Source: a virus. Taken from it: a DNA stretch of 64,000 nt. This document shows positions 36,093 to 62,398 of the stretch, in pieces (position 1 is the first letter of the stretch; each line of letters opens with the position of its first letter). The stretch spans positions 2,891-66,890 of IMG/VR virus record IMGVR_UViG_3300028920_002938; one strand, given 5' to 3'. A program made the translations under genes and the position numbers. The notes beneath the pieces were generated by a model. That model was not told where the DNA came from. It saw only the letters and a list, made by a program, of their open reading frames with translations, and made no database searches.

Positions 36093-37073
36093 TTAGTGTT
36101 CAATTATGCATGCTTTCTCTGGCTGAACTGTTTTCACACCATATCTCATAGTAGCTGCTAAGCCAATCAAGTCGTGAATTGGATCGTCATACTGTTCTAC
36201 TGTGATATCACGTCTCATTCCTATGAAACAGAATGATGGGTCGCAAATCAATGCATGTACATCGTGTTGTGTATCATTTCCACTATTCCACTTGTATGTT
36301 CCAGTTGTCCAACCATCTACAGTTAGTCTGTGTAGTTTTAGTCCGAATATCTTACCAACATCATAATTCCTCAATGCAGCATCACTACCAGCCATATGAG
36401 CTTGTAGTAAATTATTTGAAGAAATTAATAGGTTTTCTGCAAATGGAGTCATTATCATATCAGTTGGAATCCAATCTCTGTTAAGTATCTCTTTTATACC
36501 TGTAAGCATATTTGCTAGTGTGAATCCTGCTCCTGCATCTACAGTAGCGATTTGACTATATGTAGACTTGTCTGTTGCCTCATTGATTACATCATAGTTT
36601 AGTTTGTGTTCAATCTTTTGTCCTGCTCTCATTAACTCAAATTCTACCATATCCCATAGACCATCTTCAATCATCTCATTTGTAATGAGAGGTCGTGTAC
36701 CGACTTTCTTGATTTTCAAGTCACAGGTATGGAAAGTCTCTGTGTCAATTGGTATAGCTGCTCCTTCTGCTACATCAACTGCTTTTCCTAGATTACCACT
36801 CTCTTTGGTAATTCTGATTTGGTATGTGTTAGTCTTAACAATTGGAAACACTTGCCTTACGCATTGTAATGGCTTTGAACCTTCTAGAATTGTATTGTAT
36901 ACTTCCTCTTGAAGTAAGGTATCAGATTCTAATCCCTCACTCATCAAAAGTTCTTTTCGTTCTTTTGGTAGAGTATCTAATACAACTGTTTTGAAGCTCT
37001 CGGTGTTTGCGAGTTTCTTCCTTTCTACGTTGCCAGCATAAGCATACTCAAGCATTTTTGTTAGTTTAGACAT
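36093..37073 (-). CDS. Major capsid protein (HK97 fold), copy A
   Basis: VAEGAAIP..KKVGTRPLITNEMIEDG.WD..GMRRDITVE..MRYGVK; follows protease-scaffold and decoration genes; GGTGA RBS. Confidence 0.9.
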   Translation of the reverse strand: MSKLTKMLEYAYAGNVERKKLANTESFKTVVLDTLPKERKELLMSEGLESDTLLQEEVYNTILEGSKPLQCVRQVFPIVKTNTYQIRITKESGNLGKAVDVAEGAAIPIDTETFHTCDLKIKKVGTRPLITNEMIEDGLWDMVEFELMRAGQKIEHKLNYDVINEATDKSTYSQIATVDAGAGFTLANMLTGIKEILNRDWIPTDMIMTPFAENLLISSNNLLQAHMAGSDAALRNYDVGKIFGLKLHRLTVDGWTTGTYKWNSGNDTQHDVHALICDPSFCFIGMRRDITVEQYDDPIHDLIGLAATMRYGVKTVQPEKACIIEH

Positions 37074-37607: not shown

Positions 37608-39104
37608 TTAACTTCTATATACTCGTCCATGTCTTTTGTCTACAATAATACCAGTGTCTTTTTGATAAGTAACTTCTTCTTCTTTCTTAGTCTTTGGTTT
37701 TTCTTCCGTTTCTTCTAGTTTCTTGACTTGTTCTTTGAGTTTTTTGATTTCATCCTTGAAACCATCAATTGCTTCGTCTCTTGCTTTTAAAGCCATCTCA
37801 ACTTCTTTGTCAGATTCTTCCACAGTTTCTTCCTCTTTAGGTTCTTCTGTTTCTGGTTCCTTTTCCTCTAGTTCTTTTTCGTGTAGTGACTTTAGTGTTT
37901 CTGTAATGGTTTCTTTTATTGTTTCTATGATATCTGACTTTGTAAGAATATCTTCTGTTGGAATATCCTCTGGCTCTGATTTTTCTTCAGTCTCTGGTTC
38001 TTCTTCTTCTTCTTCGTCATCTTCGTCTTCAGCCTCAACTTTTGGCTCTTCTTCGTCTGATTTCTTAATCTCTTCTGGATTGCAATCTTTGCACTCTTCA
38101 TCTTCTGATTTCTTAACGACTGGTTTATTTTCTTTCTTTTTCATGTCTTTCATATAATTTTCTAACATTTCTACTTCACATTTGTTTATTATTTTAAAGC
38201 CCGAATCCTTATTTACAGGATTTGAACAAACAGAAATCTCAAATAGATTTATCTTATCAATAACTTTGATACATTTATCATCGTCACATTCTTCATGATC
38301 TTCTATAATTTCTCCACCTATTGAGAATCCTCTAATCTCACCATCTTCAATTTTCTTCCATACTTCCTTTGCAATCTCTAAGTCATATCTTATTTCTGCT
38401 ACTATGAATAATCCATTGTCGTCAACGTGTGTTTCTAACCCACCATATTTGTTTATGATTTTACCTATTTGAATATTTTTGTGAACAAGCATTATGTTTG
38501 CATATGATTCGTCAGTTATTAATGTCTCTAGTCCATCTTTTAATACTGCTGGAGGTATATATTCATTTTCTGTATCTACAACTGCTAGAGAAGCATACCC
38601 AGCAATTATCTTTCTATCATCTGTCTTACTTAATAAATTAATATTTCCAAATAAGTCAATATGTATATGTTTTTTATTTATATTTAGTTCTTCACCAGTT
38701 TTACTTGATGTCATTGTTCTTATTCCACGAATGAAATTTTCTATTGGTATGAATGAATTATTGATTGTGAAACTTAATAATGAATTTTCTTTATTCTCAC
38801 CAACAAGAGAAGATCCACATTCTGGACAAGTCTTTTCATTACAAGGAACTCCCTTTTCGTGTTCGGTTTTATATCCACACTCTGGACAAACGCAATAGTC
38901 GGCTCCACCATCACCTTGTCTGTCTCCATCTTGTCCTTGCCCGTCACCTCTTGCCTTCTCTTTAGCTCCTGGGTGTTTCTTTCTCCACATACTATAACAC
39001 ATAGCCACAGCCTGATCTTTTGGATAACCCTCACTTACGTAAACAGGGACACACCTCTTTATAAAATCAGACTTACTCTCATCTTCTTTTGGCGGACTTG
39101 GCAT
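37608..39104 (-). CDS. HK97-type prohead protease fused to an acidic coiled-coil scaffold, with N-terminal extra domains including a Zn ribbon
   Basis: [47 protein letters not shown]; Glu-rich C-terminal half. Confidence 0.88.
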
Positions 39105-39774: not shown

Positions 39775-40737
39775 CTACTTACTTAATATCCTAACAGCGG
39801 CTTGACTATTAATAACTTTAACTCCAAATCTCATTGAAGCCACTAATTTGGTTAAATCAAATGCAGGGTCTTTTATATTACTCTCAATTTTTATGTCTTG
39901 TCTCATACCTATAACAGCATAATTATCTGAATCAATAACCATTCCATAATAGTGATTTGCTGAGTCAGTTGCATCCCAATAACTTGTAGCACCAACCTCT
40001 AATGGAGTCATTAATTCATACACTTCAACTCCACAAATATCATCTCCAGTATTTGGTGTTATTCCTAATTCTGTAGAACCACTAACACTAGATTTAGATA
40101 ATAGATATCTAATAGCTGTTGGGTAACCTATGAATGACATTCTACTATTACCCCAATATAGTTTCTTTAGATATTCACGAGCTAAAGCTATGTCATATGT
40201 AGTTATGTGTGATTCTGCTGGATCTATATCTGCTGGTTTAGTAGCATGATGACCATCTAGTAACTGAGTCATACCAACCTTATTAAGAGTGTTTTCTAGT
40301 AGTGCTCCTGCTCTCTGAACTAATATTTCAATTATATCCCATTGTCCATCTTCTATTAGCTCGTGGGTAATTGGAATTGACGTAGCATATTTGTTTATTT
40401 CCACAGTTCCAGAAGCGAATGTAGCTTTCATAGTTGGAAATGCTGCACCTTCAGAAACCTTATCTACACACCCACTAGGGGATATCATAGACGGAACAAC
40501 CGCTCTGTACTCATTTACATCTATTGTTGGAATTAATTTCCTTATGACTGATCTCTTTTCTGCTCCTACATGTAATGCATTTTCTAACTCAATATTGAGT
40601 AGATTATCACTACCTGTTCCTTCTTCAGATAATAGGAGTTGCTTAATGTCTTTAGGGAAATTTGATTGATTCAATATCTCTTTTCTCTCATTATCTCCTG
40701 CATAGGTATATTCTAGTACTTTTGCTAATTTTCCCAT
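39775..40737 (-). CDS. Major-capsid-like protein (HK97 fold), copy B
   Basis: Co-linear with 36093..37073: KLAKVLEYTYAG, VSEGAAFP, ITHELIEDGQWD, IGMRQDIKIE, MRFGVK. Confidence 0.87.
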   Translation of the reverse strand: MGKLAKVLEYTYAGDNERKEILNQSNFPKDIKQLLLSEEGTGSDNLLNIELENALHVGAEKRSVIRKLIPTIDVNEYRAVVPSMISPSGCVDKVSEGAAFPTMKATFASGTVEINKYATSIPITHELIEDGQWDIIEILVQRAGALLENTLNKVGMTQLLDGHHATKPADIDPAESHITTYDIALAREYLKKLYWGNSRMSFIGYPTAIRYLLSKSSVSGSTELGITPNTGDDICGVEVYELMTPLEVGATSYWDATDSANHYYGMVIDSDNYAVIGMRQDIKIESNIKDPAFDLTKLVASMRFGVKVINSQAAVRILSK

Positions 40738-45980: not shown

Positions 45981-46137
45981 ATATAGTTTCTCCTATATAT
46001 AATTTAGAATCGAAATATCCCACCATCTACCCGACTTTTCTTGTCACTCCTGTTCGATTATCTATTGTGAGGCAGTGGAATATATAGCTATATACCCTCT
46101 CTCATATATATATATGCAGTCGTAAACCTAGTCATAG

Positions 46138-46152
46138 TATATAAAGGTTTCC
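46138..46152 (-). promoter_or_regulatory. Archaeal BRE/TATA promoter for the morphogenesis operon
   Basis: Minus strand GGAAACC-TTTATATA. Confidence 0.55.
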
Positions 46153-46792
46153 CCTCTATGTATACACCTATATATACACTTTTCGTTATCCTAGTAGAAT
46201 TTTGGCTGGAAGAGGAGAATGCCTTTTTTCTCTTTTCGTTACCCTATGTTGTGGTGACTTAGCGATTAGAAGATACTCCTGTTGCTTAAGGCGTGTTAAT
46301 GTTTCTCACAATATCATTTTTATTAACCATTTTTATATTTAAACTAACAATTGTTAAATTTTAACATTGATTATTGTAATATCATATCTAATATGATATA
46401 TATATTTAGATATTTTTATAATATGAGAAATGGCACATTTTTTTGTTTCGACAATTTTTTATTGTTTTAAGTCTTATTTACACCATTATTCCTTCTTACA
46501 CTATTTTATTAACGATTGTTAATTTGGATAGTCTATTCTCAAACCAAAAACCATATAACAATTTATGCTTAAGTTTTTTGTATTATCATAATATCTAATA
46601 TTATAATATCTAATATTGATATATTGTTATTCTACATTATTTTGATATTACTATTTTACATATTTTTTAATGGTATAATTCCTTATTTTATTTGGTATTT
46701 TTATATAAATATCATAATGTTCAATTTTGTGCATTCTCTCCTGTTGGCACAAATCGACAACTATATAAGTAAACATTGCTTACAGTAATTCC

Positions 46793-47377
46793 ATGAAACA
46801 AAATAAATCAACCGGAATATTTGAGGCAAACGAATTTGCAGAAATACGGGATTTATTGCTTGACGTGGCAAACAATCCCATTAAATACATTGACTATGAA
46901 TATAAGGAACAAAATAATTTATTAGATGATTTTAAAGAATTAATAAAATCATCTGTAAAATATGGTATTCAATTTAGATATACAAATCCAGAGTCAAAAA
47001 AACAAATGATTTACATTGATAAAAAAGACAACAGAATAAAACTATTAGGGGTTAATGGCAATGTAACAAAATCAAATACAATCTTCCACTACAGCAGATT
47101 AAAATACATTATCGCAAAAGGTCAAAACACATTAAGCATAAAGGCAATAACAAAAATTATTGCTGATAGAAAAACAGTTAAAACCATTGATATAGACCAC
47201 TTTGATAATAATAAACAAAACAATCAATTGTCAAACTTAAAACCAGTTCCTCATTCAATCAACGTAAACAATAATTATGATAAACTCAAAAAACTCATTG
47301 CAGAAGGCAAAATCCACCAAGCAAAACAAACAGCAAAAAAATTAGATGTAAGTTACCTTCTAACTTACATCCTCTAA
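46793..47377 (+). CDS. HNH (HNH_3-like) endonuclease
   Basis: DIDHFDNNKQNNQLSNLKPVPHSIN; TATATAAG at 46762-46769 about 24 nt upstream suggests a leaderless mRNA. Confidence 0.8.
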   Translation: MKQNKSTGIFEANEFAEIRDLLLDVANNPIKYIDYEYKEQNNLLDDFKELIKSSVKYGIQFRYTNPESKKQMIYIDKKDNRIKLLGVNGNVTKSNTIFHYSRLKYIIAKGQNTLSIKAITKIIADRKTVKTIDIDHFDNNKQNNQLSNLKPVPHSINVNNNYDKLKKLIAEGKIHQAKQTAKKLDVSYLLTYIL

Positions 47378-47401
47378 TCTTTTTTCTTTTAAGGTGATGA
47401 A

Positions 47402-47578
47402 ATGAAAAAAATATGGAAAACAAAAACCTTCCCAACAAGGAGAGGTGCAATAAATTTTGCAAAAGCGAAAAGTATATCAAAACCCCCATACTGGGATAAA
47501 GCAATTATACCAGATAAGAAAGGTAGACTAATTCAAACTAAAGTTTTTAAGGTTGATTACTTAGGTATTCAATCTTAA
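47402..47578 (+). CDS. Small basic hypothetical protein (58 aa, not in track)
   Basis: GGTGA RBS, MKKIWKTKTFPTRRGA..., followed by a T-tract. Confidence 0.65.
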   Translation: MKKIWKTKTFPTRRGAINFAKAKSISKPPYWDKAIIPDKKGRLIQTKVFKVDYLGIQS

Positions 47579-47742
47579 TCTTTTCTTTTTATTTTTGCCA
47601 TTCCTCTTTATATCTGCAATCCAATATATTAATCGCCATTCCTCTTATTATTCCACTTTCAGAATATTAATCATTTTACATTCCCAGAACATTAACAATT
47701 GTTTAATCTTATTAAAATGAAAGAAAGAAAAAAAAGATGACC

Positions 47743-47874
47743 TTATTGCCATCTTTCATATTTTGGGCTGAGCGTATGACCGCAATCACATACGAACTCT
47801 TCATTTTGGTATTTCTTTATTAGTTCTCTTATGTAATATGCTGTCTTACATTTCTTACATATTATTTTTATCAT
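47743..47874 (-). CDS. 43 aa zinc-finger protein, leaderless (not in track)
   Basis: MIKIICKKCK..FVCDCGHTL; TATA at 47897-47904; T-tract downstream. Confidence 0.7.
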   Translation of the reverse strand: MIKIICKKCKTAYYIRELIKKYQNEEFVCDCGHTLSPKYERWQ

Positions 47875-48002
47875 AATATCATATATAAGATATTAGTATA
47901 TAAACTTATGTATTGCAGTTCCTCTTATTATTTCAGATCTTATATATTAATACCCATATTCTTATATCCTGCATATGTGAAAAAAATAAAGAAAAAAAAG
48001 AA

Positions 48003-48218
48003 TTAATGAGATAAAAGCGTATCAATTTTATCAATGAAACCACTAATGATTAATGAATGGTAGCGTAACTCATCACTTGTTGTTAATAGTTTACAGTTAT
48101 TTGCATCATGCCTTATCATACTGCGTAATTCATATAAGTATTCCTGTAGTATTTTGAAATTTCTCTGTGTTCCAGATAAAGATACATTTGTTATATCTGC
48201 TAATGCTATTCCGTCTAT
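48003..48218 (-). CDS. 71 aa ORF with ATA start (non-canonical start or decayed gene)
   Basis: GGAGGTGA RBS then ATA GAC GGA..., open for 71 codons; own TATA (48263-48270) and T-tract. Confidence 0.5.
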   Translation of the reverse strand: MDGIALADITNVSLSGTQRNFKILQEYLYELRSMIRHDANNCKLLTTSDELRYHSLIISGFIDKIDTLLSH

Positions 48219-48400
48219 TTTATCACCTCCTTTAATTTCATATATCTAATATAGATTATTAGTATATAAACCTTGTGTTTGGCATTCCTCATTATATTTT
48301 CATTCCAGAATATTAATATCCGTCATTCCTCTTTATATCCTAAGATCCAAATATTAATAACTAAATAAAAAAAATATAAAGAAAAAAAAGATAAAGATGT

Positions 48401-48664
48401 TTACTGAAAACCAACATCTGAATTTGGAACATTTTGTTTGCTGTTTATCATATCTGCAAAGTTCTTGATTTTTGTTATTAATTCCTTATTGACAATTACT
48501 ACTAATTCATCTTTTGTAAATTCGCTCTGTAACTTATTGACAATATCTTTCCCAGATATTCCGTCATCTGTATTCATTTTGCTGAATATTTCATCTGTGA
48601 GTTTGATTAATTTGTCGTTTGTTGTTCTCATTACTGCTTGGAATTCTTCAAAGGTTTTTATCAT
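48401..48664 (-). CDS. Small helical hypothetical protein in a cassette
   Basis: GGAGGTGA RBS, TATA at 48711-48718, downstream T-tract. Confidence 0.75.
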   Translation of the reverse strand: MIKTFEEFQAVMRTTNDKLIKLTDEIFSKMNTDDGISGKDIVNKLQSEFTKDELVVIVNKELITKIKNFADMINSKQNVPNSDVGFQ

Positions 48665-48982
48665 TCTTTATCACCTCCTTTTGTTTCTATTATTAAGAAT
48701 GTGTTACAAGTATATAAGTGTTTTGGTTGTCATTCCTCTTATTATTTGTCATATGGAATATTAATCCAGCCTTCCCCATTCCTCTTATTATTTTCCAATC
48801 CAGATATTAATGGTCATTCTGGGCATTCCTCTTATTATCTGAAAAAAAATATAAAAAAGATCTAATCATATATGATTGTCTAAAATTAAACAAAAGAAAA
48901 AAAAGAGATTAAAAAACTTATTTGTGTTTTTCAATCCAAGTTTTAATTTCTATCCAAGTTTTTGGTAGTGCATACTGCATAT

Positions 48983-49297
48983 TTATTTTTCCTTTTTAAT
49001 TTTGTTTATCTGTTTCTGTAATTGTTTTATGTGTTCTAATAGTGTTTGCTCATTGTTTGATTGTTCTGTTTCTGTGTTATTCCATTGTAGTTTTTGCATT
49101 TGTTCAAAGACTTTTGGGAAAATATCCCTTGAGATATTAACGCTATTTCTACCACATCTGTAATTAATGAATTCACTTCCACCATTAACCATACTTCTTA
49201 TAGTATGTGTTCTTGTTTTTGTATTTCCATTATAGGTGTATTTTTCGCTTACCTCTTTTGTATCTAATACTTTACTTTCCATGTTTTTTATCACCAT
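48983..49297 (-). CDS. Small hypothetical protein in a cassette
   Basis: TATA at 49317-49324; GGTGA before the internal ATG at 49282; C-terminal coiled coil. Confidence 0.7.
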   Translation of the reverse strand: MVIKNMESKVLDTKEVSEKYTYNGNTKTRTHTIRSMVNGGSEFINYRCGRNSVNISRDIFPKVFEQMQKLQWNNTETEQSNNEQTLLEHIKQLQKQINKIKKEK

Positions 49298-49847
49298 ATA
49301 GTAATAGACTTATGTATATATAAAGTTTATGGTTGCTATTCCTCTTTTTATTTTGTATGCAGAATATTAATAGTTCTCAATCACTATTCCTCTTATTATA
49401 TTAATCCAAGAATATATATGCTGTTCCTCTTTTTATCTACCTACTCATATTTAATTAGTTCCTCTTTTTATTCAACCTATCTTATAAAACTATCTATATA
49501 TATAGTCTATGGTTAGTCTAAATACTAGTCTAGGTATGCGTGAAACAAAAGGCAATCTAAAATACGGGCTTAAAATTATGTATATAGTAGTGCTTATGGA
49601 AATGAAAAGATGTATATATAAGTAACTAAGTCTAAACACAACATACAACTAATACACACTTAATTTATTACTCTATACAACACTATGTTGTTTTCTCCTT
49701 ATAGACTATCTTATATTCTCTCCTTATACTACCCAAAAATAGGTAGAATTAATCACCTATCTACTACCCAAAATTGAGTAAGTATCGTTACATGTTCCGT
49801 TATAAGTTTATGCTCACTATTCTATACTATACTCTATACTAAGATCA

Positions 49848-49864
49848 CCGAAAAGTATTTAAAT
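49848..49864 (+). promoter_or_regulatory. BRE/TATA promoter for rightward early genes
   Basis: CCGAAAAG-TATTTAAAT about 35 nt before the ATG at 49897. Confidence 0.6.
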
Positions 49865-49896
49865 CACCTGCACTCTAATAGGAATGGTGAAACAAA

Positions 49897-50091
49897 ATGA
49901 CTAACAATAAGAAAATAGAACATAAGGCAACCGACAACACTATCTATGATAGTAGTGATAATGAAAGAATAGGATATAGGATAGGTATGAGTGATAAGGA
50001 ATTTAATGATTACCTAAACTATAAATTAACTGAAGGTATGAGTAAGAAGAATAGATTACTTATACTAAAATATGAAAAGGAGATAGATTAA
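49897..50091 (+). CDS. Hypothetical protein
   Basis: GGTGA RBS; 64 aa. Confidence 0.65.
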   Translation: MTNNKKIEHKATDNTIYDSSDNERIGYRIGMSDKEFNDYLNYKLTEGMSKKNRLLILKYEKEID

Positions 50092-50093
50092 AA

Positions 50094-50981
50094 ATGAAAA
50101 CAAATAGAGTGCATATAATAGAAAATAGTAAAGTCTTTACTAATGAAGTAAAGAAACTAAATAAGAAGGAAATAGAATATGAAAGAGTAGATGGTGAAAA
50201 CTATATATGTTTAATTACTAATCACCACAGTTATCTATTCTATTCAAGTAAGCAGAATGTAAACCATATATTCTTTGTTAGAGTATTTGGCAAAGATAAT
50301 ATACAACAAAGACTAATATCTAAAACAAGTAAGAATGTAACAGAAAAGACTTGGCATGATAAGGATATAGTAGTCTATAAAGATGAGAAAATATCTACAT
50401 ATAGGAATACAGATGTAGGTAATACTACTAATGTGCATAGAGTAGAAAATACAAATGAAACATTAGGTTATCCTTTTAAAAGGAAAATATCATTTGCCTT
50501 TATTAAGGATAGTAAGGATAGATTACAGTATAGGAGAGAATGTATAGAATTATCTAAATACAATAGACAAGGTAAAAGAAAAAAGATGTTAGATGATGTA
50601 TTCTGCACAAGAGTATTAAGACTATTCCTTAATCTAAAAGGGCATACAAATACAGAGATATATAATATACTAAGGGCAGAAGAAACTATATCTGGATATG
50701 CAGTAGTAGAAATAATGGAATACTTATATCAGGTAATAAGCAGTTATCACCCATATTTCTATCATAAGAATGGAACATGTAAGTATAACAAATATATTCT
50801 AAAGGAACAGATAAGACAGATAAAACAAATAGGATTATTAGATTGTGATTATACTTTATGTAAGGTAAATAGAAATGTTCATAAGGATAGTAATCAAATA
50901 AAACAAGAAGATGTTCAGGATTGGCTTAAACAAAGACAAGCACTATTAGATAAGGGTGAATTGTGGGAAGATATAGATTAA
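50094..50981 (+). CDS. Hypothetical basic protein (295 aa)
   Basis: GGAG RBS; followed by a long T-tract terminator at 50985-51012. Confidence 0.75.
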   Translation: MKTNRVHIIENSKVFTNEVKKLNKKEIEYERVDGENYICLITNHHSYLFYSSKQNVNHIFFVRVFGKDNIQQRLISKTSKNVTEKTWHDKDIVVYKDEKISTYRNTDVGNTTNVHRVENTNETLGYPFKRKISFAFIKDSKDRLQYRRECIELSKYNRQGKRKKMLDDVFCTRVLRLFLNLKGHTNTEIYNILRAEETISGYAVVEIMEYLYQVISSYHPYFYHKNGTCKYNKYILKEQIRQIKQIGLLDCDYTLCKVNRNVHKDSNQIKQEDVQDWLKQRQALLDKGELWEDID

Positions 50982-51304
50982 TATCTTTCCTTTTCTTTTT
51001 TTTTTATCTTTTTATATATAGTATTACTTACTTTATCTGGGATTTTTGATTGAAAAAACTTAATTCTTATTATTACTTAGTGATTACCTACTAATGTATT
51101 TGGCTTATTATTAATTATCTATCCTACTATACTATATACTTAATATGGATACAATTATTATATTAATAATTCTATCCTACTTATACTTAAATCAATATAC
51201 TATATATTATAATATTATTAATACATATATTATTAGATATAATAGGTTACCTGATTGTTATTAATATAATTATATATAGTAATAGATATAGATATAAGGC
51301 GTTT

Positions 51305-51367
51305 GGCGAAACATTTAAATATTTTGTCATCATCATATTTAAATCTTTCCGAAAACTTTAAATACGA
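51305..51367 (+). promoter_or_regulatory. Tandem BRE/TATA promoters
   Basis: GGCGAAACATTTAAATA and CCGAAAACTTTAAATA. Confidence 0.55.
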
Positions 51368-51479
51368 TTGAGTTTTTTTGCAGTATTAATGGAATGAAAA
51401 ATTTCAATTATTATTAATTATATATATATTATTAAATCCCATTAATATTTATATCTATTTAATAATTGTAATTATAATT

Positions 51480-51857
51480 CATTCCCAACCTATTATTTAA
51501 TTTGGGAGATTATCTAATAGGTTTAAAATAAATCTTATTTTCACACTTAAATCTTAGATAGGTTTTAAAGGTTTAACTATCCAGAATAGTTGCGATATAT
51601 CAGTATATACAAGTTATTACTGATGACAACAGGTGTTCGATAGAATAGGTATCTTAGATTTTTTAGGTTATGTTGATAGTATTATCATATTCTGTAACCC
51701 AACCTATTCTATCTAAAATCTCAAATACATTATGCTTATACTTTAGTTTCAATACTAAGTATAGGATTTAAACAATAGGTTTCTTGTTCTTTAGCAGGTT
51801 TCTTTATCCTATATTTTCTTTATCACCAAAATAAAAAAGAAAACCTGCTTTTTTTCT
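51480..51857 (+). ncRNA. Candidate structured non-coding RNA or long leader
   Basis: ORF-free; several inverted repeats; ends in a stem plus T-tract. Confidence 0.4.
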
Positions 51858-51937
51858 CCTATTATTTAGACTTACTATATGTAAGAGTGGCTTATAGTTC
51901 CCACTTTAAATAGAATAACTTAAAAGGAGTAAATATT

Positions 51938-55053: not shown

Positions 55054-55272
55054 ATGATAAAAATGGTAGAAGTAGAAGTATATTTAGATGATGAATTCGA
55101 AACAGATGTAGAGATAAATCCAAATGAAATGACACATGATGAAAAGGAAGAATTAATATCTGCTTTAAAACAGGGAAAGAAATATATACTAAAAGGGATA
55201 ACTGTTCATATAGTAGGAACAACATATTCAGAATATGAACCTGAACCAATGTATAATGAGGGATACTATTAA
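55054..55272 (+). CDS. Acidic hypothetical protein
   Basis: 72 aa; GGAG RBS. Confidence 0.6.
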   Translation: MIKMVEVEVYLDDEFETDVEINPNEMTHDEKEELISALKQGKKYILKGITVHIVGTTYSEYEPEPMYNEGYY

Positions 55273-55511
55273 TGAAAGATAAAGAAATAATGAAATTAAG
55301 TAAGAAATGCACTACAATAAGAGATAAGATAATAAAACAAAAACTAAAAACAGAAGATGAAATACTTACACACATAAAAAAGAAAATGTCACAAGAAGAA
55401 ATAGAAGAACTTGCAAAACAATTTCTTCTTAAGGAAGCAATAAACCTTATGCTATCTGAAATGACAGAAGAATATAAAGACAATCAAGATAATGAAATGA
55501 TGTATGTGTGA
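55272..55511 (+). CDS. Hypothetical helical protein
   Basis: Coupled ORF, 79 aa. Confidence 0.6.
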   Translation: MKDKEIMKLSKKCTTIRDKIIKQKLKTEDEILTHIKKKMSQEEIEELAKQFLLKEAINLMLSEMTEEYKDNQDNEMMYV

Positions 55512-55652: not shown

Positions 55653-55904
55653 ATGATTGCTTTAGTGATGAATATGAATAAATGGAAAGGCAGATATATA
55701 AAAGTAATACATGGTCCACATTGTGGCACAATATTACATGTCTTAAAGTATGTCGGTAGAAACGAAGAAAATGAAGTAGAAATTATGGCAAATGAATATT
55801 GTAATAAAAGAAAAAAGAAAGAACAGATATGGATTATTGATATGCCAGAACATGAATATTGGGAATACATACCACAGGAACAGTTCGTAGCAGAACTATT
55901 GTAG
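55653..55904 (+). CDS. Small hypothetical protein (SH3/KOW-like pattern) ending FVAELL
   Basis: KGRYIKVIHGPHCG pattern; carries the shared C-terminal motif. Confidence 0.6.
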   Translation: MIALVMNMNKWKGRYIKVIHGPHCGTILHVLKYVGRNEENEVEIMANEYCNKRKKKEQIWIIDMPEHEYWEYIPQEQFVAELL

Positions 55905-56009
55905 GAATGATAGAATGAAAAAAGAAAATAAAGAATTAGAAAAAATATGGGAAGCATTGATAGAACTTCAAAATGATATTAATAGATTAAAAAATAAAAG
56001 GAGATAATT

Positions 56010-57149
56010 ATGGGTGAAGTAAAATTAAATCACACTCAATTAGAAAGTGTGATAAGAGAATATATTAAGGCTGGTGTTTCATTATATCTATGGGGAACGA
56101 CAGGTATAGGTAAAAGCCAAACTGTCGAAAAGATAGCAAGAGAGAAGGCAGAAGAATTAAAAAGGAAATTAATGATTTGGCATAAGTTAAGTAAACAGGA
56201 AAAGAATGAAGTGATTGCTAACCCTGAACACTACTACATACTTATTGACAAAAGACTTTCACAAATGGATCCATCTGACTTAAGAGGATTACCTGCACTA
56301 AATGGTAAAGATACAGTTGAATGGAAACCACCTATGTGGTTGATGGCTATATCTAATCCAAAAGCAAAAGGAATACTGTTCTTAGATGAGATTAACTTAT
56401 CACCACCAAGTTTACAATCATCTGCATATCAAATAATAAATGACCATGCATTAGATGAGTTAAGTATTTCAGATGATGTTGCTATCATAGCAGCAGGAAA
56501 TAGAAAATCAGATAGAGCAAATACATTTGAAATCCCAAAACCATTACAGAATAGATTTGGTCATGTTATACTAAAGGTTCCACATATAGATGATTGGATT
56601 AATTGGGCAATCAAACACGATATAGATTCTAGAATTATAACATTCCTAAAATTTAAGAATACTGCACTATTTAGATTTGACCCAGATAGTAAGGAACATG
56701 CGTTTCCTACACCAAGAAGTTGGGGTGAATTTTGTAATAGACTTATAAAAGGAAAACCAGATAAGACAGAAGAACAGAGAGATATAATCAAAATGCTTTC
56801 ATCATCTGCAATAGGTAGTGGAACTTCAATTGAGTTTGTTGCATTCCTTAAATTAAAGGAAAGTATAGACTTGAATAAAATACTAAGGAATCCACAAGAA
56901 GTAGAAAGCATAAAACAACTTGACTTAAAGTATTCACTTATATCATTGATATCTGAATGGTATGAAAAGAATTTCAAAAGGGAAGATTTGGAAAAGGTAT
57001 TACAAATTGCATCACATATGGAAGATGAATTTGCTATCCTTCTATTAGGTATGGCAAGAGAAAAACATAAATCTTCATTTATGAATCAAGTAGTTAAAAT
57101 AGATATATGGAAAAAAATTAATGAAAAATATGGTATCTATCTAATATAG
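56010..57149 (+). CDS. MoxR-type AAA+ ATPase
   Basis: Walker A GTTGIGKS, DLRGLP, Walker B LFLDEIN, AAGNR, LQNRF, PTPRSW. Confidence 0.92.
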   Translation: MGEVKLNHTQLESVIREYIKAGVSLYLWGTTGIGKSQTVEKIAREKAEELKRKLMIWHKLSKQEKNEVIANPEHYYILIDKRLSQMDPSDLRGLPALNGKDTVEWKPPMWLMAISNPKAKGILFLDEINLSPPSLQSSAYQIINDHALDELSISDDVAIIAAGNRKSDRANTFEIPKPLQNRFGHVILKVPHIDDWINWAIKHDIDSRIITFLKFKNTALFRFDPDSKEHAFPTPRSWGEFCNRLIKGKPDKTEEQRDIIKMLSSSAIGSGTSIEFVAFLKLKESIDLNKILRNPQEVESIKQLDLKYSLISLISEWYEKNFKREDLEKVLQIASHMEDEFAILLLGMAREKHKSSFMNQVVKIDIWKKINEKYGIYLI

Positions 57150-57160
57150 AGTTGAATTAA

Positions 57161-58366
57161 ATGTGGAAACTAACTACAGAAAAAAAGATTACAAAAGCAA
57201 GAGTAAAACTTAATGACAGAAATCCATTCTTTGGGTATCTAACAATGAGATTAGAATTCGAAAGAAAAGATGATGAAGTTGATAGGATATCCGTTAATAA
57301 GTTTGGTCATTGCAAATACAATGGAACATTTATAGATTCACTACCACAAGAACAAATAATAGGTGCAATAGCACATGAAGTAATGCATTGTGCATTAAAT
57401 CACTTTGATAGAATGCAGGGAAAAGATAAACAATTATGGAACATATCAACAGATATAGTTATAAATGCACTACTTGCAGTAGATGGATTAGTGCCACCAA
57501 AAAATGGTTATAATCCTAATGGAGGTGGATATATAAATATTTGGGGCATTGAATTATATGAGTGCCATAAAAAGAGTGCAAATGAAGTATATGACAAACT
57601 ATATAATGCATATAAAAAACAAGAAAAATCAGGATTAGAAGAAGGATTTGACATACATATATACGATGATGATAATCAAGGTAAAGAAGGTAAGAAGAAA
57701 AATAAATCTGGTAATACTAATGATATTCCTACTGATTGGGAAAAAGAAATAGTAGAAGCAGCAACCTTTGCTAAAATGCAAGGTAAACTACCAGCAGGAA
57801 TAAAAAGACTTGTTAATGAATTGCTTGGAAATGTGATTGATTGGCGTGGATTGTTATACAAATACATACAATCAACATTACCATTTGATTATACTTGGAT
57901 TAAACCAAATAAAAAATCATATGCAACTGGAATATATATGCCAGATGTAGTAAGAGAACAAATTGATATCATATGTAGCATAGATACATCAGGTAGTATA
58001 TCTGAAGAAGAACTTACAGAATTTTCAAGTGAGTTACTTGGAATTATAAACTCATTTGAGAATATAAACCTAACAATTATATATAATGATACAGAAGTAT
58101 ATGGTCCACATAGATTACAAAATCCTACACCAAGTGATATAATTAAACTAAAACCAGAAGGTGGTGGTGGAACAAATCACATACCTGTATTTGAATGGGT
58201 AAATAAAAATAATGAGAATGCTTCATTATTAATTTGCTTTACAGATGGGTATACCTCTTATCCAAATAATTCAAGTATAGATACCATTTGGGTATTAGCA
58301 GGTCATCATTGTGATAAAGACACAATACCATTCGGTAGGGTAATAGAATTACCAAGAACACACTAG
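57161..58366 (+). CDS. DUF2201-like HExxH metallopeptidase-like domain plus VWA domain
   Basis: AHEVMHCALNH, WNISTDIVIN, MIDAS DTSGSIS, GGGGT, FTDGY. Confidence 0.9.
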   Translation: MWKLTTEKKITKARVKLNDRNPFFGYLTMRLEFERKDDEVDRISVNKFGHCKYNGTFIDSLPQEQIIGAIAHEVMHCALNHFDRMQGKDKQLWNISTDIVINALLAVDGLVPPKNGYNPNGGGYINIWGIELYECHKKSANEVYDKLYNAYKKQEKSGLEEGFDIHIYDDDNQGKEGKKKNKSGNTNDIPTDWEKEIVEAATFAKMQGKLPAGIKRLVNELLGNVIDWRGLLYKYIQSTLPFDYTWIKPNKKSYATGIYMPDVVREQIDIICSIDTSGSISEEELTEFSSELLGIINSFENINLTIIYNDTEVYGPHRLQNPTPSDIIKLKPEGGGGTNHIPVFEWVNKNNENASLLICFTDGYTSYPNNSSIDTIWVLAGHHCDKDTIPFGRVIELPRTH

Positions 58367-58376
58367 AGGTATTATT

Positions 58377-59240
58377 ATGAAATATGAAGAAATAATAGCA
58401 GAAATAGAAGAACTACAAGAAGAAGAATGTAGATATAGAAAGAAGTTAGATTATTTTGAAAAAAACAAAGACAAAATAACTGAAAAATATTTCAAAGCAA
58501 AGTGTGGAAATAAGTATAATGAGATATATGAGTTATTGTCAGAAATTAAATCATACATATATGAAGGAGGTGAAACATCTTTAACTAAACAACGTAAAAG
58601 AATGAGTTCTATGGTTATTAAATCTATACATAAATTAATTTCTAGAAAAACATTAATAGTAGAAGATGGTAACAGAGGAATATATGCAGGTCCATATGGA
58701 ATAGGTGAACAAATAAAATATTACGACAGAGCAAATCCAGTAACAAATATGTATCAATTAATACAAATATTCAAAAGGTATCCTACTGCTGATTTTGGAA
58801 AAAAGATAAAGAACTATCCAAAAAAAACACTTATTAGAGAATATCAAAAAACATTAGTCAACTATAAATTCTTAGACGATATTAGTAAGAAAATAAATGT
58901 AAATAATGCTAATATACATTTAAGAGATCCAGATAGTTCATTATCAATGAAATCAAAGATAGTATCCGAGATATCCATTTCTGTTGGTCGTTGGAGTAAT
59001 TACATAACTCTTGGTAGTAATAATTATTCTTATTATTCAGACAAGAATAATAAAATATTATTTAATACAGAAACTATAACTCCATACGAATGCTATTTAG
59101 CATCACAAGTATGGGAATATTTAAAACCAAAGTTAATTGAAATACTAGATATATTAAAACAAATATATGACAACAATGAGAAATTAAAAGAAACTATACT
59201 AGATAAACTAGGATATATATTAGTTGCACAACAATTATAG
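58377..59240 (+). CDS. Hypothetical protein ending ILVAQQL
   Basis: 287 aa; GAGGT RBS. Confidence 0.75.
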   Translation: MKYEEIIAEIEELQEEECRYRKKLDYFEKNKDKITEKYFKAKCGNKYNEIYELLSEIKSYIYEGGETSLTKQRKRMSSMVIKSIHKLISRKTLIVEDGNRGIYAGPYGIGEQIKYYDRANPVTNMYQLIQIFKRYPTADFGKKIKNYPKKTLIREYQKTLVNYKFLDDISKKINVNNANIHLRDPDSSLSMKSKIVSEISISVGRWSNYITLGSNNYSYYSDKNNKILFNTETITPYECYLASQVWEYLKPKLIEILDILKQIYDNNEKLKETILDKLGYILVAQQL

Positions 59241-59248
59241 GTGAATAA

Positions 59249-59581
59249 ATGACAATAGGTATACAAGTTCCAGATAAAATAAATATAAAAGGCTCAATAC
59301 AAAGAGGTAATCTAATTATGCTTAAGAAACACAAAGATTTATTTACTACCTATACTTGGCATAAGAATAATCCAAATGTTAATTTTATTGCTATGGTAGT
59401 AGATGTAATAAGTGGTTGGAGTTATTGCATGTTAGAACTACAAATAGTATATCCTTGTTTAGATATGGAAATGTGGATAGATGAAACATTATCATATGGT
59501 AAAGAGGATATAGAAAAGAGAATAGAATTAGAAGATTTAAATGAAGAACAATATAGTATTATAGTGGCGATGTTATTATGA
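59249..59581 (+). CDS. Hypothetical protein ending IIVAMLL
   Basis: 110 aa; GGTGA RBS. Confidence 0.7.
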   Translation: MTIGIQVPDKINIKGSIQRGNLIMLKKHKDLFTTYTWHKNNPNVNFIAMVVDVISGWSYCMLELQIVYPCLDMEMWIDETLSYGKEDIEKRIELEDLNEEQYSIIVAMLL

Positions 59582-59928
59582 AAAAAAGAATAGGATATGC
59601 ATTACTTGAAGGAATGAAAAAGAAACCCATATGGGGAACTGTTTATTCTTGGGAAACAGATATTTATATGTCGATATACTTTAATATACCAGATAATCCA
59701 GTTAATTGTAATTGGTATATGGATTTAAAAGCAAGATATAATTTTAAGACTATAGAGAAAGGAGGCTATAGGTATGGCTTTTATTATAAAATAATCTGTT
59801 CAAGAAAAATAGATGACATGAGACACTTACTTAAAGAATTAAAGAAATGGGAATATTCAGATAATAAATTTAATATTAAACTTGATGTTGATGAAGTATT
59901 AAGTTGTGCAGTATTAAATAAACTATAG
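59578..59928 (+). CDS. Hypothetical protein ending AVLNKL
   Basis: 116 aa; ATGA overlap with the upstream gene. Confidence 0.7.
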   Translation: MKKRIGYALLEGMKKKPIWGTVYSWETDIYMSIYFNIPDNPVNCNWYMDLKARYNFKTIEKGGYRYGFYYKIICSRKIDDMRHLLKELKKWEYSDNKFNIKLDVDEVLSCAVLNKL

Positions 59929-59939
59929 GAGAATATTGT

Positions 59940-60215
59940 ATGAATGATTTATTATGTAAGGAAGCAAAGAAAATAATTATTGATGTAGCCAGTGATATAA
60001 TTCAAGTAGAGGATTATAGTTACTATCTATGGCTCTTTAATAATGACAATGAAATGATTGGTGTAGTCCATGGTGGTGAAGGTAAACCATTTGAACTAAA
60101 GGTGATTAATATAGGTGATTATAAAATTGTAGACTTTCAGTTTCATAACTGGTGTGACTTTAAAGACTTTCTTAAAAATAAAATGAGAAATTATATAGTG
60201 GCGATGGCTCTATGA
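59940..60215 (+). CDS. Hypothetical protein ending YIVAMAL
   Basis: 91 aa; GGAG RBS. Confidence 0.7.
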   Translation: MNDLLCKEAKKIIIDVASDIIQVEDYSYYLWLFNNDNEMIGVVHGGEGKPFELKVINIGDYKIVDFQFHNWCDFKDFLKNKMRNYIVAMAL

Positions 60216-60334
60216 AAGAAAAATATAGATGGTATTGCTTAAAGTGTAATGAATTCTTTAGTAGTTTAGGAAATGAATTTGATTGTCCATTATGTGGAAG
60301 TCATAATATACTATTTATTAAAATATTAAAGTGA
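60212..60334 (+). CDS. 40 aa zinc-ribbon protein (not in track)
   Basis: MKEKYRWYCLKCNEFF..FDCPLCGS; overlaps both neighbours. Confidence 0.6.
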   Translation: MKEKYRWYCLKCNEFFSSLGNEFDCPLCGSHNILFIKILK

Positions 60335-61548
60335 GTGAAACTATGAAATATTTTAGTATGTTTTCAGGTATAGGTGGATTTGATTTAGCACTCAATAGTT
60401 TAGGTCATAAATGTATAGGCTATTGTGAGATAGATAAATATGCTATATCTGTATATAAATATAATTTTGGAAAAGAGGTGAAAAATTATGGAAATGCAAA
60501 AGAATTTAAACCAAATGAATTACAAGATTTTGATTTACTTGTTGCAGGATTTCCTTGCCAAGCATTCAGTATTGCTGGAAAACGGGAAGGTTTCAGAGAT
60601 ACCAGAGGAACATTGTTTTTCGATATTGCAAGAGTTATTCAAACTAAAAAACCTAAGATTATACTCCTTGAAAACGTCAAAGGCTTACTCAATCACAAGA
60701 AAGGGAAAACTTTCTCAATCATCATTCAAACGCTGGATGAATTGGGGTATGCAGTTGAATGGATGGTACTTAACAGCAAATTTTTCGGAGTACCCCAGAA
60801 TAGAGAAAGAGTCTTCATTATCGGATATCTTAGAGGAACAAGTAGACAGCAAGTATTACCTATCAGAGAATATGCAAAAAAGGTTTCAGGAATATCTAAA
60901 GAAAAAACATACAAATACCACAGAGCAAAAGAAATAAGAGAACATGATGGTAGTCCTACACTAACACAAAATATGGGAACAGGTGGGCATAATGTTCCTA
61001 TAGTAATGAGTCTACAAAAGAGAGATATAAATAGACCATCTATAAAAAAGAGAATAGATGCAGGATTAAAACCTAATGCAGGTAGTGGTACTATAGGTAA
61101 AGAAGATGAAGCATACTGTTTAGATTCAGCAGTTACTCAAGGAGTAGCAAGGTGTCTTGATTCTAATATGCATAAAGGAGTAACACCAAAGTATTACTTT
61201 GAAAAGAAAAAAAGAAATATAGTTGCTAGTCGTGGTAGAAATCCAGATAATCCGTCAGATAGAACAAGTGGAATATATACAGAACAAAGACTAGAAGAAA
61301 ATCCAGAAGGAATAACAAATACACTAACAAACATTCAAAAAGATAATTGGCTAATGGATTATGATAAGTTACGAAGATTAACTCCTATCGAATGCGAAAG
61401 ACTACAAGGCTTTCCTGATAATTGGACAGCAAAAGGTTTAAATAAAAAGAACCATATAATAGATATATCGGATACACAAAGATATAGGCAATTAGGAAAT
61501 GCAGTAACAGTTAATGTAGTTTATATGATATGCAAGGGATTTAAATGA
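60331..61548 (+). CDS. dcm: DNA (cytosine-5)-methyltransferase
   Basis: FSGIGG, GFPCQAFS, ENVKG, PQNRERVF, RRLTPIECERLQGFPD, LGNAV. Confidence 0.96.
   Translation: MSETMKYFSMFSGIGGFDLALNSLGHKCIGYCEIDKYAISVYKYNFGKEVKNYGNAKEFKPNELQDFDLLVAGFPCQAFSIAGKREGFRDTRGTLFFDIARVIQTKKPKIILLENVKGLLNHKKGKTFSIIIQTLDELGYAVEWMVLNSKFFGVPQNRERVFIIGYLRGTSRQQVLPIREYAKKVSGISKEKTYKYHRAKEIREHDGSPTLTQNMGTGGHNVPIVMSLQKRDINRPSIKKRIDAGLKPNAGSGTIGKEDEAYCLDSAVTQGVARCLDSNMHKGVTPKYYFEKKKRNIVASRGRNPDNPSDRTSGIYTEQRLEENPEGITNTLTNIQKDNWLMDYDKLRRLTPIECERLQGFPDNWTAKGLNKKNHIIDISDTQRYRQLGNAVTVNVVYMICKGFK
60488..60937 (+). CDS. Alternative-frame ORF nested in dcm (M.EcoHK31I beta-like)
   Basis: 149 stop-free codons in the +1 frame containing WMNWG..NGWYLTANFSEYP..ESSLSDILEEQVDSKYYLSE. 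Confidence 0.55.
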   Translation: MEMQKNLNQMNYKILIYLLQDFLAKHSVLLENGKVSEIPEEHCFSILQELFKLKNLRLYSLKTSKAYSITRKGKLSQSSFKRWMNWGMQLNGWYLTANFSEYPRIEKESSLSDILEEQVDSKYYLSENMQKRFQEYLKKKHTNTTEQKK

Positions 61549-61811
61549 AAAAGAGATTAGGAATAAAGGCAATAGATATTTTAAAGAAAGCAGAGGAAAT
61601 AGAAAATAACTGGATAATTGTTGAAGAAGAAACAACTTCTAATTATGGAGTAGCAATTAAATTGACAGGTGATCCAGAAATAAAAATAGCATACTTCACT
61701 AAAAGAAGTGGTAAAATTACAATACCAAATGATAAATATATGTGTATCGATATAAAATGTGTAGATAAACTAATCAAGGCTATTAAAGAATTAGTGGAGA
61801 TGGAAGTATAA
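61545..61811 (+). CDS. Hypothetical protein (weak PC4-like pattern)
   Basis: 88 aa coupled ORF; beta strands followed by a C-terminal helix. Confidence 0.6.
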   Translation: MKKRLGIKAIDILKKAEEIENNWIIVEEETTSNYGVAIKLTGDPEIKIAYFTKRSGKITIPNDKYMCIDIKCVDKLIKAIKELVEMEV

Positions 61812-62398
61812 TGGAAGTATATATAAGCAAAGGAAATTTAAGAATGGATATACCAACCTTTAGCCTACCTTCTAATATAACTTGTCCAAATGCAACAGAT
61901 TTATGTAAGAAATACTGTTATGCAAGAAAGGCAGAAGTATCATATCCAAATGTATTACCTAGTAGAATAAGGAACTGTTTGGAATCAGAAAATGATGACT
62001 TTGCAAGAGTTATGATTAAATGGATTTTAAAACACAAACCAAAATATTTTAGAATACATGAATCTGGTGACTTTTATTCACAAGGTTATTTAGATAAATG
62101 GTGTATGATTGCTGTGTTCTGTAAAGATACAAAGTTTCTAGCATATACACAAATGTATGATTATGATTACACACTCAAACCCGATAACCTAATCATATAC
62201 TTTTCTATATGGCCAGATAGTAAAGACATACCGAAAGAAGGTTTAAAGGCATATGTAATTGATGATGGAAAAAACAAAATACCATATTATGATACAGATG
62301 GCTTTGTATGTAAGAAAGGAAAAGGAACAGATATAACATGTGATAAGTGTTTATATTGTTTTGAAGGTAAAGGTAATGTTCAGTTCAAACTTCATTAG
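61811..62398 (+). CDS. GP88-like Cys-rich protein
   Basis: SKGN..FSLP..TCP....C...CYA, FRIHESGDFYS, AYT, C..CDKCLYC. Confidence 0.8.
   Translation: MEVYISKGNLRMDIPTFSLPSNITCPNATDLCKKYCYARKAEVSYPNVLPSRIRNCLESENDDFARVMIKWILKHKPKYFRIHESGDFYSQGYLDKWCMIAVFCKDTKFLAYTQMYDYDYTLKPDNLIIYFSIWPDSKDIPKEGLKAYVIDDGKNKIPYYDTDGFVCKKGKGTDITCDKCLYCFEGKGNVQFKLH

Follow-up and report, generated by a model that had tools for sequence, protein, structure and literature searches.

Recognition of a short C-terminal peptide by an AAA+ ATPase is documented, e.g., for ClpX, which binds a short C-terminal segment of SspB with its N domain and the C-terminal ALAA of ssrA with its channel (PMC9963277). [quoted passage not shown] In NorQD, the ATPase ring is plugged by the VWA domain, and the sixth ligand of the MIDAS metal is an acidic group that the target supplies (PMC9976466). 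MIDAS sites are also reported to bind extended peptides, and a MoxR-vWA pair has been cited, after Scheele et al. 2011, for the tail assembly of an archaeal virus; in the vWA-MoxR ternary conflict systems, linked zincin peptidases are described as processing small diverging proteins with a conserved C-terminal peptide (all in PMC7159879). The subject of the present report is a short C-terminal tail shared by proteins encoded around a MoxR/VWA-zincin gene pair in a 64-kb stretch of the 66.9-kb IMG/VR "provirus" record IMGVR_UViG_3300028920_002938. This stretch, i.e., the whole DNA analyzed, is referred to below as the window (68 called genes, 19,149 amino acids (aa)).

The tail is a real feature, selected at the protein level, anchored to the exact C-terminus, carried by unrelated protein bodies and clustered around the gene pair. 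It is taken here to be a docking element, and the evidence for this reading and for its alternatives is weighed below.

A common C-terminal tail around the gene pair

Five plus-strand genes of the window encode proteins ending alike. Upstream of the pair lies A83 (55653..55904), with the tail EQFVAELL at 55878-55901. Downstream follow B287 (58377..59240, 287 aa; ILVAQQL in ..YILVAQQL, 59214-59237), C110 (59249..59581, 110 aa; SIIVAMLL, 59555-59578), D116 (59578..59928, 116 aa; the weaker CAVLNKL in ..SCAVLNKL, 59902-59925) and E91 (59940..60215, 91 aa; NYIVAMAL, 60189-60212). These are the C-termini noticed in a preliminary description of the DNA, and the list of open reading frames (ORFs) reproduces all five exactly as written there. 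The end of its first ORF, 55653-55904, stands as well; its start probably does not, since an ortholog aligns from 55674 and the frame opened at 55653 overlaps the upstream ORF, so that the likely true start is 55674 (MNKWKGRY.., 76 aa).

The regular expression [FILMVWYC]VA..L has four matches in the 19,149 aa of the window, all at an extreme C-terminus (A83, B287, C110 and E91), and no further gene among the 68 called ends in this way. Hence, the statement that no other ORF of the window has such an end could be upheld, with one borderline case, an 88-aa plus-strand protein (61545..61811) with the tail KELVEMEV, which scores 6.4 bits and the ortholog of which (L083:2164-2430; L and G numbers designate comparison loci and records) ends in IVELVEMEL. 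The scores of the window tails come from a position-specific scoring matrix (PSSM) trained on other loci only, the window tails being outside the training set. By this measure, three tails are strong (A83, 13.5 bits; E91, 11.4 bits; C110, 10.0 bits), that of D116 is weak (3.8 bits), and B287 (-3.7 bits) qualifies via the regular expression and its orthologs only.

Viral contigs and metagenomes each supplied 80 comparison loci and genomes a further 61, all fetched via relatives of the MoxR ATPase. Homologs of this ATPase number 4,776 at E <= 1e-20, and relatives at 45-80% identity are numerous. The core set comprised 26 loci with MoxR at least 42% identical, containing 358 same-strand ORFs. Same-strand ORFs ending in Leu make up 36% in these close loci vs. 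8% in distant loci. An expectation-maximization fit to the last eight residues returned [DEKN]-E-[LIAV]-[ILVM]-[AVMI]-[ED]-[LKE]-[LI]-COOH, and 116 of the 358 ORFs scored at least 6 bits, with the consensus [DE]-E-h-h-[AVM]-E-L-[LI]-COOH (h, hydrophobic). At 8 bits, 89/358 termini qualified vs. 43 of 42,627 internal 8-mers; the count was 8/200 in intermediate loci and 1/1,543 in loci with MoxR at approximately 30% identity.

The PSSM had been fitted to the very ORFs counted, and a motif-free test was therefore added, in which ORF pairs with their last six residues scoring at least 12 in BLOSUM62 were counted and random internal hexamers served as the null. All 200 nulls stayed below the observed count in 24 of 126 loci, e.g., 124 pairs vs. 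3.6 expected in L003 and 28 vs. 1.8 in L086 (the unpublished genome bin G005, which holds L164, contributes one row to this test). Chance as the origin of the common ends was rejected on three grounds: the regular-expression count in the window, the termini compared with internal 8-mers, and the hexamer-pair nulls.

Tail flavors differ by sub-lineage (..AELL/AMAL, ..TALLI, ..MVELL, ..IMExL, ..VDEL and ..AEKV), and a genome may hold up to approximately 26 tagged genes. Thus, the preliminary description was right about five tagged proteins and underestimated the scale, the tag being lineage-wide and present on dozens of families. It had also set beforehand that its proposal should be dropped if orthologs did not conserve the terminus, and the tail is kept in orthologs of all five window proteins. 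The A83 ortholog (L083:3787-4020) ends in KEMAIAELL, those of C110 (L084:66-350 and L099:1203-1487) in YDKILAELL, those of D116 in YNKFVLAKL (L083) and YTRMVMEKL (L085), and those of E91 in DYIIAMAL, SIVLAMAL and DEMMMYEI.

For B287, a homolog at 33% identity ends in ..LLVAEEL, and a hidden Markov model (HMM) search of 1.84 billion cluster representatives yielded a family of 14 members. Its alignment consists of the window protein, P0002 and 12 other matches, the near-identical P0001 being left out; all 14 sequences (17-36% identical to the window protein) end at one column in L or I, with the consensus hLLVAExL. Searches of viral and genome contigs for related loci with single proteins or with the B287 alignment returned nothing useful.

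The other ground named beforehand for dropping the proposal was a motif no more frequent near MoxR/VWA than elsewhere. In the window, a looser regular expression finds tails in 5/28 genes within 7 kb of the pair and in 0/34 elsewhere (Fisher p = 0.015). In G001, the whole 144.5-kb record behind L003 (232 ORFs), 22/45 ORFs within 7 kb of the pair are tagged vs. 4/185 elsewhere (Fisher p = 1.4e-14). With the PSSM retrained without this record's own locus, the counts are 20/44 near vs. 3/185 far, and with the plain regular expression 22/44 vs. 8/185, the eight distant ones looking genuine.

The MoxR/VWA-zincin pair and candidate readers of the tail

The first gene of the pair (56010..57149, plus strand) encodes a MoxR-type AAA+ ATPase of 379 aa, matching PF07728 AAA_5 with 24.9 bits (cut-off 22) and phrog_1297 at 2.9e-82. 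Its G-x-x-G-x-G-K-S (G29, G32, G34, K35, S36) and D-E-x-N (D126, E127, N129) motifs are invariant in 41 sequences. The second (57161..58366, plus strand) encodes a 401-aa fusion of a zincin-like metallopeptidase with a VWA domain, matching PF13203 DUF2201_N at 8.8e-36 (124.3 bits, cut-off 23.2), PF09967 DUF2201 at 7e-21 (75.1 bits, cut-off 26.4) and phrog_1314 at 1.1e-87. In 14 orthologs, both its HExxH motif (H72-E73-x-x-H76) and an intact MIDAS (D275, T276, S277, G278, S279, T338, D362) are invariant. These two are the only untagged proteins conserved throughout the neighborhoods. The tail PSSM gives their own ends 5.0 bits (MoxR) and -28.9 bits (VWA protein), the line being drawn at 6 bits. 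The MoxR end, ..YGKYLI, was considered as a copy of the tag and dropped, being ragged among relatives (..YFEV, ..YLIH, ..YLIED) and at 5.0 bits.

The reading preferred here, with a probability of roughly one half, is that the tail is a portable docking tag plugging unrelated small early proteins into one reader, most likely the MoxR/VWA-zincin pair. In its window form, h-V-A-x-x-L-COOH, it would make a two-turn amphipathic helix ending in a free carboxylate, by which these proteins, a large and rapidly evolving set, would dock on one common reader, the candidate being the co-transcribed pair. The VWA metallopeptidase might bind the tail in its peptidase groove or at its intact MIDAS metal site, where the ligand would be the acid at -3 or the carboxylate of the terminus; either site could plausibly accept a free carboxylate that follows an amphipathic and often acidic helix. 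The MoxR ring would then remodel, or the peptidase process, the tagged protein or what the tagged protein holds, the tagged proteins being candidate clients, adaptors or substrates.

When the VWA protein was modeled in complex with E91 in the presence of Mg and Zn, the interface score (ipSAE) was 0.52 (runs at 0.52, 0.54 and 0.46), the best of three controls scoring 0.00. The runs agreed in at least 60% of contacts, and the predicted local distance difference test (pLDDT) of the partner was at least 82. The mark applied is reached by 58/80 solved complexes and 2/110 mismatched pairs; scores up to 0.60 belong to only 7 of the 80 solved complexes plus both mismatches, and the use of own alignments and riding ligands differs from the calibration set-up. 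The preliminary description proposed that the tagged proteins may dock on the MoxR-VWA machine. The score (0.52 vs. 0.00) leans that way and weakly suggests that the VWA protein would be the reader of the tag.

Other common tails stand beside the pair in three loci with MoxR only 31-36% identical to that of the window; L009 and L037 have ..F-x-L-R-W-[AS], and L126 has ..F-K-L-x-[YW]-x. The LRW-type tails are carried by arrays of 53-107-aa ORFs (L009 10400-13688; L037 14-2240 and 8005-8361; G004:C1:263578-266526). L009 belongs to the 338.5-kb phage record G004 (454 ORFs), in which all eight LRW-type termini lie 3-6 kb from MoxR (263.6-266.5 kb and 269.3-270.0 kb, respectively). In L167 (6573-9157), tails ..ESL/ESI/KEL occur near the pair, and six ORFs located further downstream have ..M-[SD]-F-[DG]-Y or ..M-[DE]-Y ends, which hints at two tag systems in one genome. 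Such tails of other sequence beside the pair in unrelated lineages suggest a general principle. As a tentative extension, the MoxR/VWA-zincin pairs of tailed viruses, archaeal and bacterial, might be programmable hubs, each lineage with its own address tag, on which dozens of host-takeover or counter-defense proteins, or captured host proteins, are remodeled or cut. If true, this would be a viral plug-in adaptor system, with the clade studied here as its clearest example.

A number of observations weigh against docking on the pair. Four to eight tagged ORFs of G001 sit 10-40 kb from it, and the clustering may merely reflect a common early-gene region. The same pair is present without tags in the relatives L006, L117 and L119 and at nearly all distant MoxR loci; therefore, the pair does not need the tags. 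Every comparison locus was reached through MoxR, which places any tag without the pair outside the sample, and a scan of viral contigs with the back-translated tail matched only one record, already in the set. Only about 54% of tails, and a single one of the window's five, have the acid at -3, a possible MIDAS ligand; the PSSM scores of the B287 (-3.7 bits) and D116 (3.8 bits) tails are low, and the last eight columns of the B287 family rank only 49th of 272 windows for conservation. The prediction with E91 is weak and gives no contacts, and therefore does not show the tail as the interface. In the models described below, the tail is continuous with the fold and hence may be packed rather than exposed.

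Several of these points would also be met if the tail were a docking tag read by a host hub such as an AAA+ unfoldase or protease, a transcription or replisome factor, or some other conserved host protein. Viral proteins would then be brought to this hub or imitate host partners, and MoxR/VWA would merely lie in the same early region. A protein-level, terminus-anchored tag on unrelated bodies fits this equally well, the flavors of the sub-lineages are as expected if the reader differs between hosts, and both the tagged ORFs far from the pair and the close relatives keeping it without tags are in line with it. Such a host reader is nevertheless considered doubtful: two genomes have their tagged genes crowded around the pair, a third, unrelated lineage shows the same crowding for a different tail, and the prediction of a complex with the viral VWA protein held, albeit weakly, against its controls. 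By eye, the tail also fits neither of two docking motifs, the PIP box (PCNA-interacting peptide; Q-x-x-[LIM]-x-x-[FYW]-[FYW]) and the HbYX motif, i.e., hydrophobic-Tyr-X at the C-terminus, a type of tail that docks on proteasome rings. It has no Q-x-x-h-x-x-aromatic-aromatic pattern and no Tyr at -2; the PSSM shows L/K/E at -2, L/I at -1 and no aromatic pair, and none of the five window tails fits either motif.

Carrier proteins and the level of constraint

With the last 12 residues removed, 388 proteins fall into 269 BLAST clusters, 89 of which have at least one tagged member. As for the window, the preliminary description saw no similarity between the bodies of its five proteins, and this was borne out: no BLASTP pair appears at E < 1, and hhalign stays below 14% for every pair. 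A single paralogous family for these five was rejected on the basis of BLASTP, hhalign and the differing model folds of E91 and A83. No match above cut-off was obtained for them in Pfam and PHROGs; ten larger tagged proteins matched no Pfam family, and the best score of B287 in the ESM Atlas was 0.87, under the 0.9 line.

It could be argued that there is no portable tag, the tail being simply the C-terminal helix of a single, greatly expanded and rapidly diverging family of small viral proteins, the kinship of which is no longer detectable. Many carriers of the clade (63-100 aa) are indeed mutually alike, start with M-K-F-K-K-G-D-[YFI] and probably form one expanded barrel family in the relatives; the barrel plus helix modeled for A83 could fit most carriers, and tagged ORFs stand in tandem arrays. 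Among seven families compared by hhalign, D116 and a 153-aa family may be distantly related (31.7%), every other pair being below 14%. As a general explanation this is unlikely. Carriers range from 52 to 388 aa and include a 282-305-aa family with 14 members, the alpha/beta protein E91 and proteins with Cys-x-x-Cys pairs (L003_6272, L003_6502 and L086_923). Once the tails are trimmed, the hhalign probability is at most 17.4% for all family pairs; profile alignments between families cover the tail alone or nothing, and that of A83 with the small "MKFKKGD" family is confined to the last 14 residues.

The AlphaFold2 model of E91 (pLDDT 89.6) shows an alpha/beta fold of a helix, five strands and two helices, the tail being the helix 82-90, and had no Foldseek match in the PDB at E <= 0.001. 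For A83, a five-stranded small beta-barrel followed by the helix 68-75 was modeled (pLDDT 80.1, two of five models confident); Foldseek against the PDB found nothing at E <= 0.001, and its weak matches were Sm/LSm-like (best E = 0.036). The terminal helix proposed in the preliminary description is thus seen in both models, where the tail (pLDDT ~77-87) follows the last structural element directly.

This continuity is also what would be seen if the tail had no partner at all and were an intramolecular capping helix or a shield from exoproteolysis or C-degron pathways, acquired by convergence or by descent. The tail is of an ordinary amphipathic-helix type and is not the most conserved segment of the B287 family. 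Such a role is, however, very unlikely, since a generic stabilizer would not be confined to the genes around one gene pair, would not shift its flavor jointly in dozens of unrelated genes within a genome, and would not be absent from 181/185 distant ORFs of G001.

At the DNA level, the string ATAGTGGCGATG, which the preliminary description had seen in two ORFs, has exactly two copies in the window, at 59561-59572 (C110) and 60195-60206 (E91), with 0/100 shuffles matching. Both copies use GTG GCG, codons rare in the AT-rich DNA of the window, and lie at an equal distance from an ATGA overlap, the stops of C110 and E91 each overlapping the following start. The shared 12-mer may have a second role as ribosome-binding site for the following gene, or it may be the trace of a local tail duplication that happened recently. 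Among the 116 tagged ORFs, an ATGA overlap with the next start is found in 41, vs. 25 of 242 others, and GAG outnumbers GAA at tail position -3; this suggests an occasional overlay of tail and ribosome-binding site, and nothing more.

At the same time, the four strict window tails encode Val-Ala as GTA GCA, GTT GCA and GTG GCG (twice). Every tail position of the 116 tagged ORFs uses many codons; their stops are TGA (56), TAA (43) and TAG (17), and 65% of them are without the overlap. Within genomes (14 loci), the same codon is used at same-residue tail positions in 675 of 1,285 comparisons, 675.5 being expected. Since codons and stops vary freely and codon sharing is at expectation, the constraint acts on the protein, not on a ribosome-binding site or a recombination joint. 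Hence, despite the 12-nt string with its rare codons and ATGA overlaps and the excess of ATGA and GAG over the lineage, a DNA- or RNA-level signal (a ribosome-binding site, translational coupling or a microhomology joint for cassette swapping) is barely credible and goes unsupported by the codon data.

The anchoring to the C-terminus is seen in ortholog clusters of the same loci: all 45 members of 15 tagged clusters end flush vs. 35 of 80 members of 18 untagged ones, a comparison in which MAFFT tends to align similar tails and thereby favors flush ends. Ragged C-termini are plain to see in the MoxR and VWA families, which are untagged.

Genome context and comparison with described systems

The array around the pair is tight, with intergenic gaps of -4 to 11 nt, and runs in the order A83, a 30-aa ORF, the MoxR ATPase, the zincin/VWA protein, B287, C110, D116, E91, a 40-aa zinc-ribbon ORF and a C5 DNA methylase. 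The 30-aa ORF (55915..56007, plus strand), between A83 and the ATPase gene, is without the tail and had no Pfam family above cut-off and no PHROG match. Downstream of the tagged array lie the C5 cytosine DNA methylase (60331-61548, plus strand; PF00145, 6.6e-86) and a GP88-family protein (61811-62398, plus strand; PF17338, 1.5e-29).

Two further small families of this region have terminal motifs of their own. Just upstream of MoxR, an untagged family of 79-89 aa (55272-55511, plus strand, in the window) has a conserved end; with its orthologs (L083:3167-3430, L084:1351-1599, L085:2612-2863, L086:6369-6638 and L099:2488-2736), the ends are ..EMMYV, ..LISYG, ..GSMYG, ..SIMYG and ..SCMYG (twice), which on inspection of the residues resemble HbYX tails. 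The other motif distinct from the tag, ..EPMYNEGY[YCD], closes a small family at 55054-55272 (plus strand), L085:2117-2323 and L083:2405-2569.

The virus of the window is a tailed virus: its minus strand carries HK97-type capsid genes and genes for a portal, a prohead protease and a terminase between 1 and 46 kb. HK97-type capsid profiles are matched by two separate genes of ~320 aa (36093-37073 and 39775-40737, both on the minus strand), possibly a duplicated major capsid protein, and the prohead protease gene (37608-39104) sits between them. The structural module also holds three giant minus-strand ORFs, 765-10286 (3,173 aa), 13568-18997 (1,809 aa) and 24911-30775 (1,954 aa); a Pfam search of two further large structural ORFs (720 and 962 aa) gave no match. 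A GC-poor stretch with few long ORFs (46000-51900, 25-28% GC), located where gene orientation and GC skew change over, is possibly a regulatory or origin region. From ~49.9 kb on, a plus-strand module of ~34 mostly small genes follows. No tRNA was found across the window, and no host flank in the 2.9 kb of the record outside it.

The genome bins holding the nearest MoxR genes are labeled Woesearchaeota, Nanoarchaeia, Iainarchaeum, Saccharibacteria, Natrialbaceae and Methanobacteriaceae, the unpublished G005 contributing its label here as well. These labels give a hint of DPANN archaeal hosts, and no more than a hint. The "archaeal virus" of the preliminary description is plausible from these metagenome-bin labels only.

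For the majority of small early genes in phages and archaeal viruses, neither function nor family is known. A common eight-residue tag would give dozens of them one handle, predicting action through one partner, and offers both a route to that partner and a sequence rule for finding further tagged genes. It would also give a first testable function to the widespread, unexplained phage MoxR/DUF2201 pair (phrog_1297 and phrog_1314; 797 phage records match the ATPase), and, if it works when transplanted, a ready-made targeting peptide. In the literature consulted on phage MoxR/DUF2201, vWA metallopeptidases, ATV p618, viruses of DPANN/Woesearchaeota and C-termini of small proteins, no such tag is described; a text search of a nanohaloarchaeal-virus preprint found no mention of MoxR or vWA.

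With ssrA/SspB-ClpX, the tail shares its nature of a short, extreme C-terminal peptide with a free, non-polar terminus on otherwise unrelated proteins. In place of ClpX, the candidate ATPase here is of the MoxR type and is paired with a VWA/zincin protein; the tail differs in its helical, acidic-hydrophobic character and is carried by dozens of virus-encoded families, where the ClpX examples are one adaptor and one co-translational tag.

In gene content only, the locus resembles the peptide-processing modules of Kaur, Burroughs, Iyer and Aravind (2020), which likewise combine a zincin, vWA-MoxR and small, fast-diverging, C-terminally conserved proteins (PMC7159879). Those modules are cellular (actinobacterial, FtsH-type), with one precursor, FxSxx, RxD or acidic motifs and often a radical-SAM enzyme, whereas the locus described here is viral, with up to ~26 tagged genes per genome, and its motif [DE]E-h-h-[AVM]-E-L-L matches none of the FxSxx, RxD, acidic and FtsH-associated peptide types listed for them.

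Effector-associated domains (EADs), as described in PMC7159879, are similar in joining many variable modules to one constant core via a small common element, with adjacent genes and lineage-specific versions. EADs are whole small folded domains, one copy of which is always fused to a core component, and couple homotypically; in contrast, the element described here has 8-9 residues and is absent from both MoxR (5.0 bits) and the VWA protein (-28.9 bits). In its defining features, the tail matches neither EADs nor any of the listed peptide classes.

The likeness to NorQ/NorD, CbbQ/CbbO, RavA/ViaA and ATV p618/p892 lies in the adjacent MoxR and VWA genes and the intact MIDAS. In the locus analyzed here, unlike in these known pairs, the N-terminal part of the VWA protein is a zincin peptidase domain (DUF2201_N). 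The known MoxR/VWA pairs each serve one dedicated client complex, whereas the viral pair, if it is the reader, would serve a whole repertoire of small proteins via one tag.

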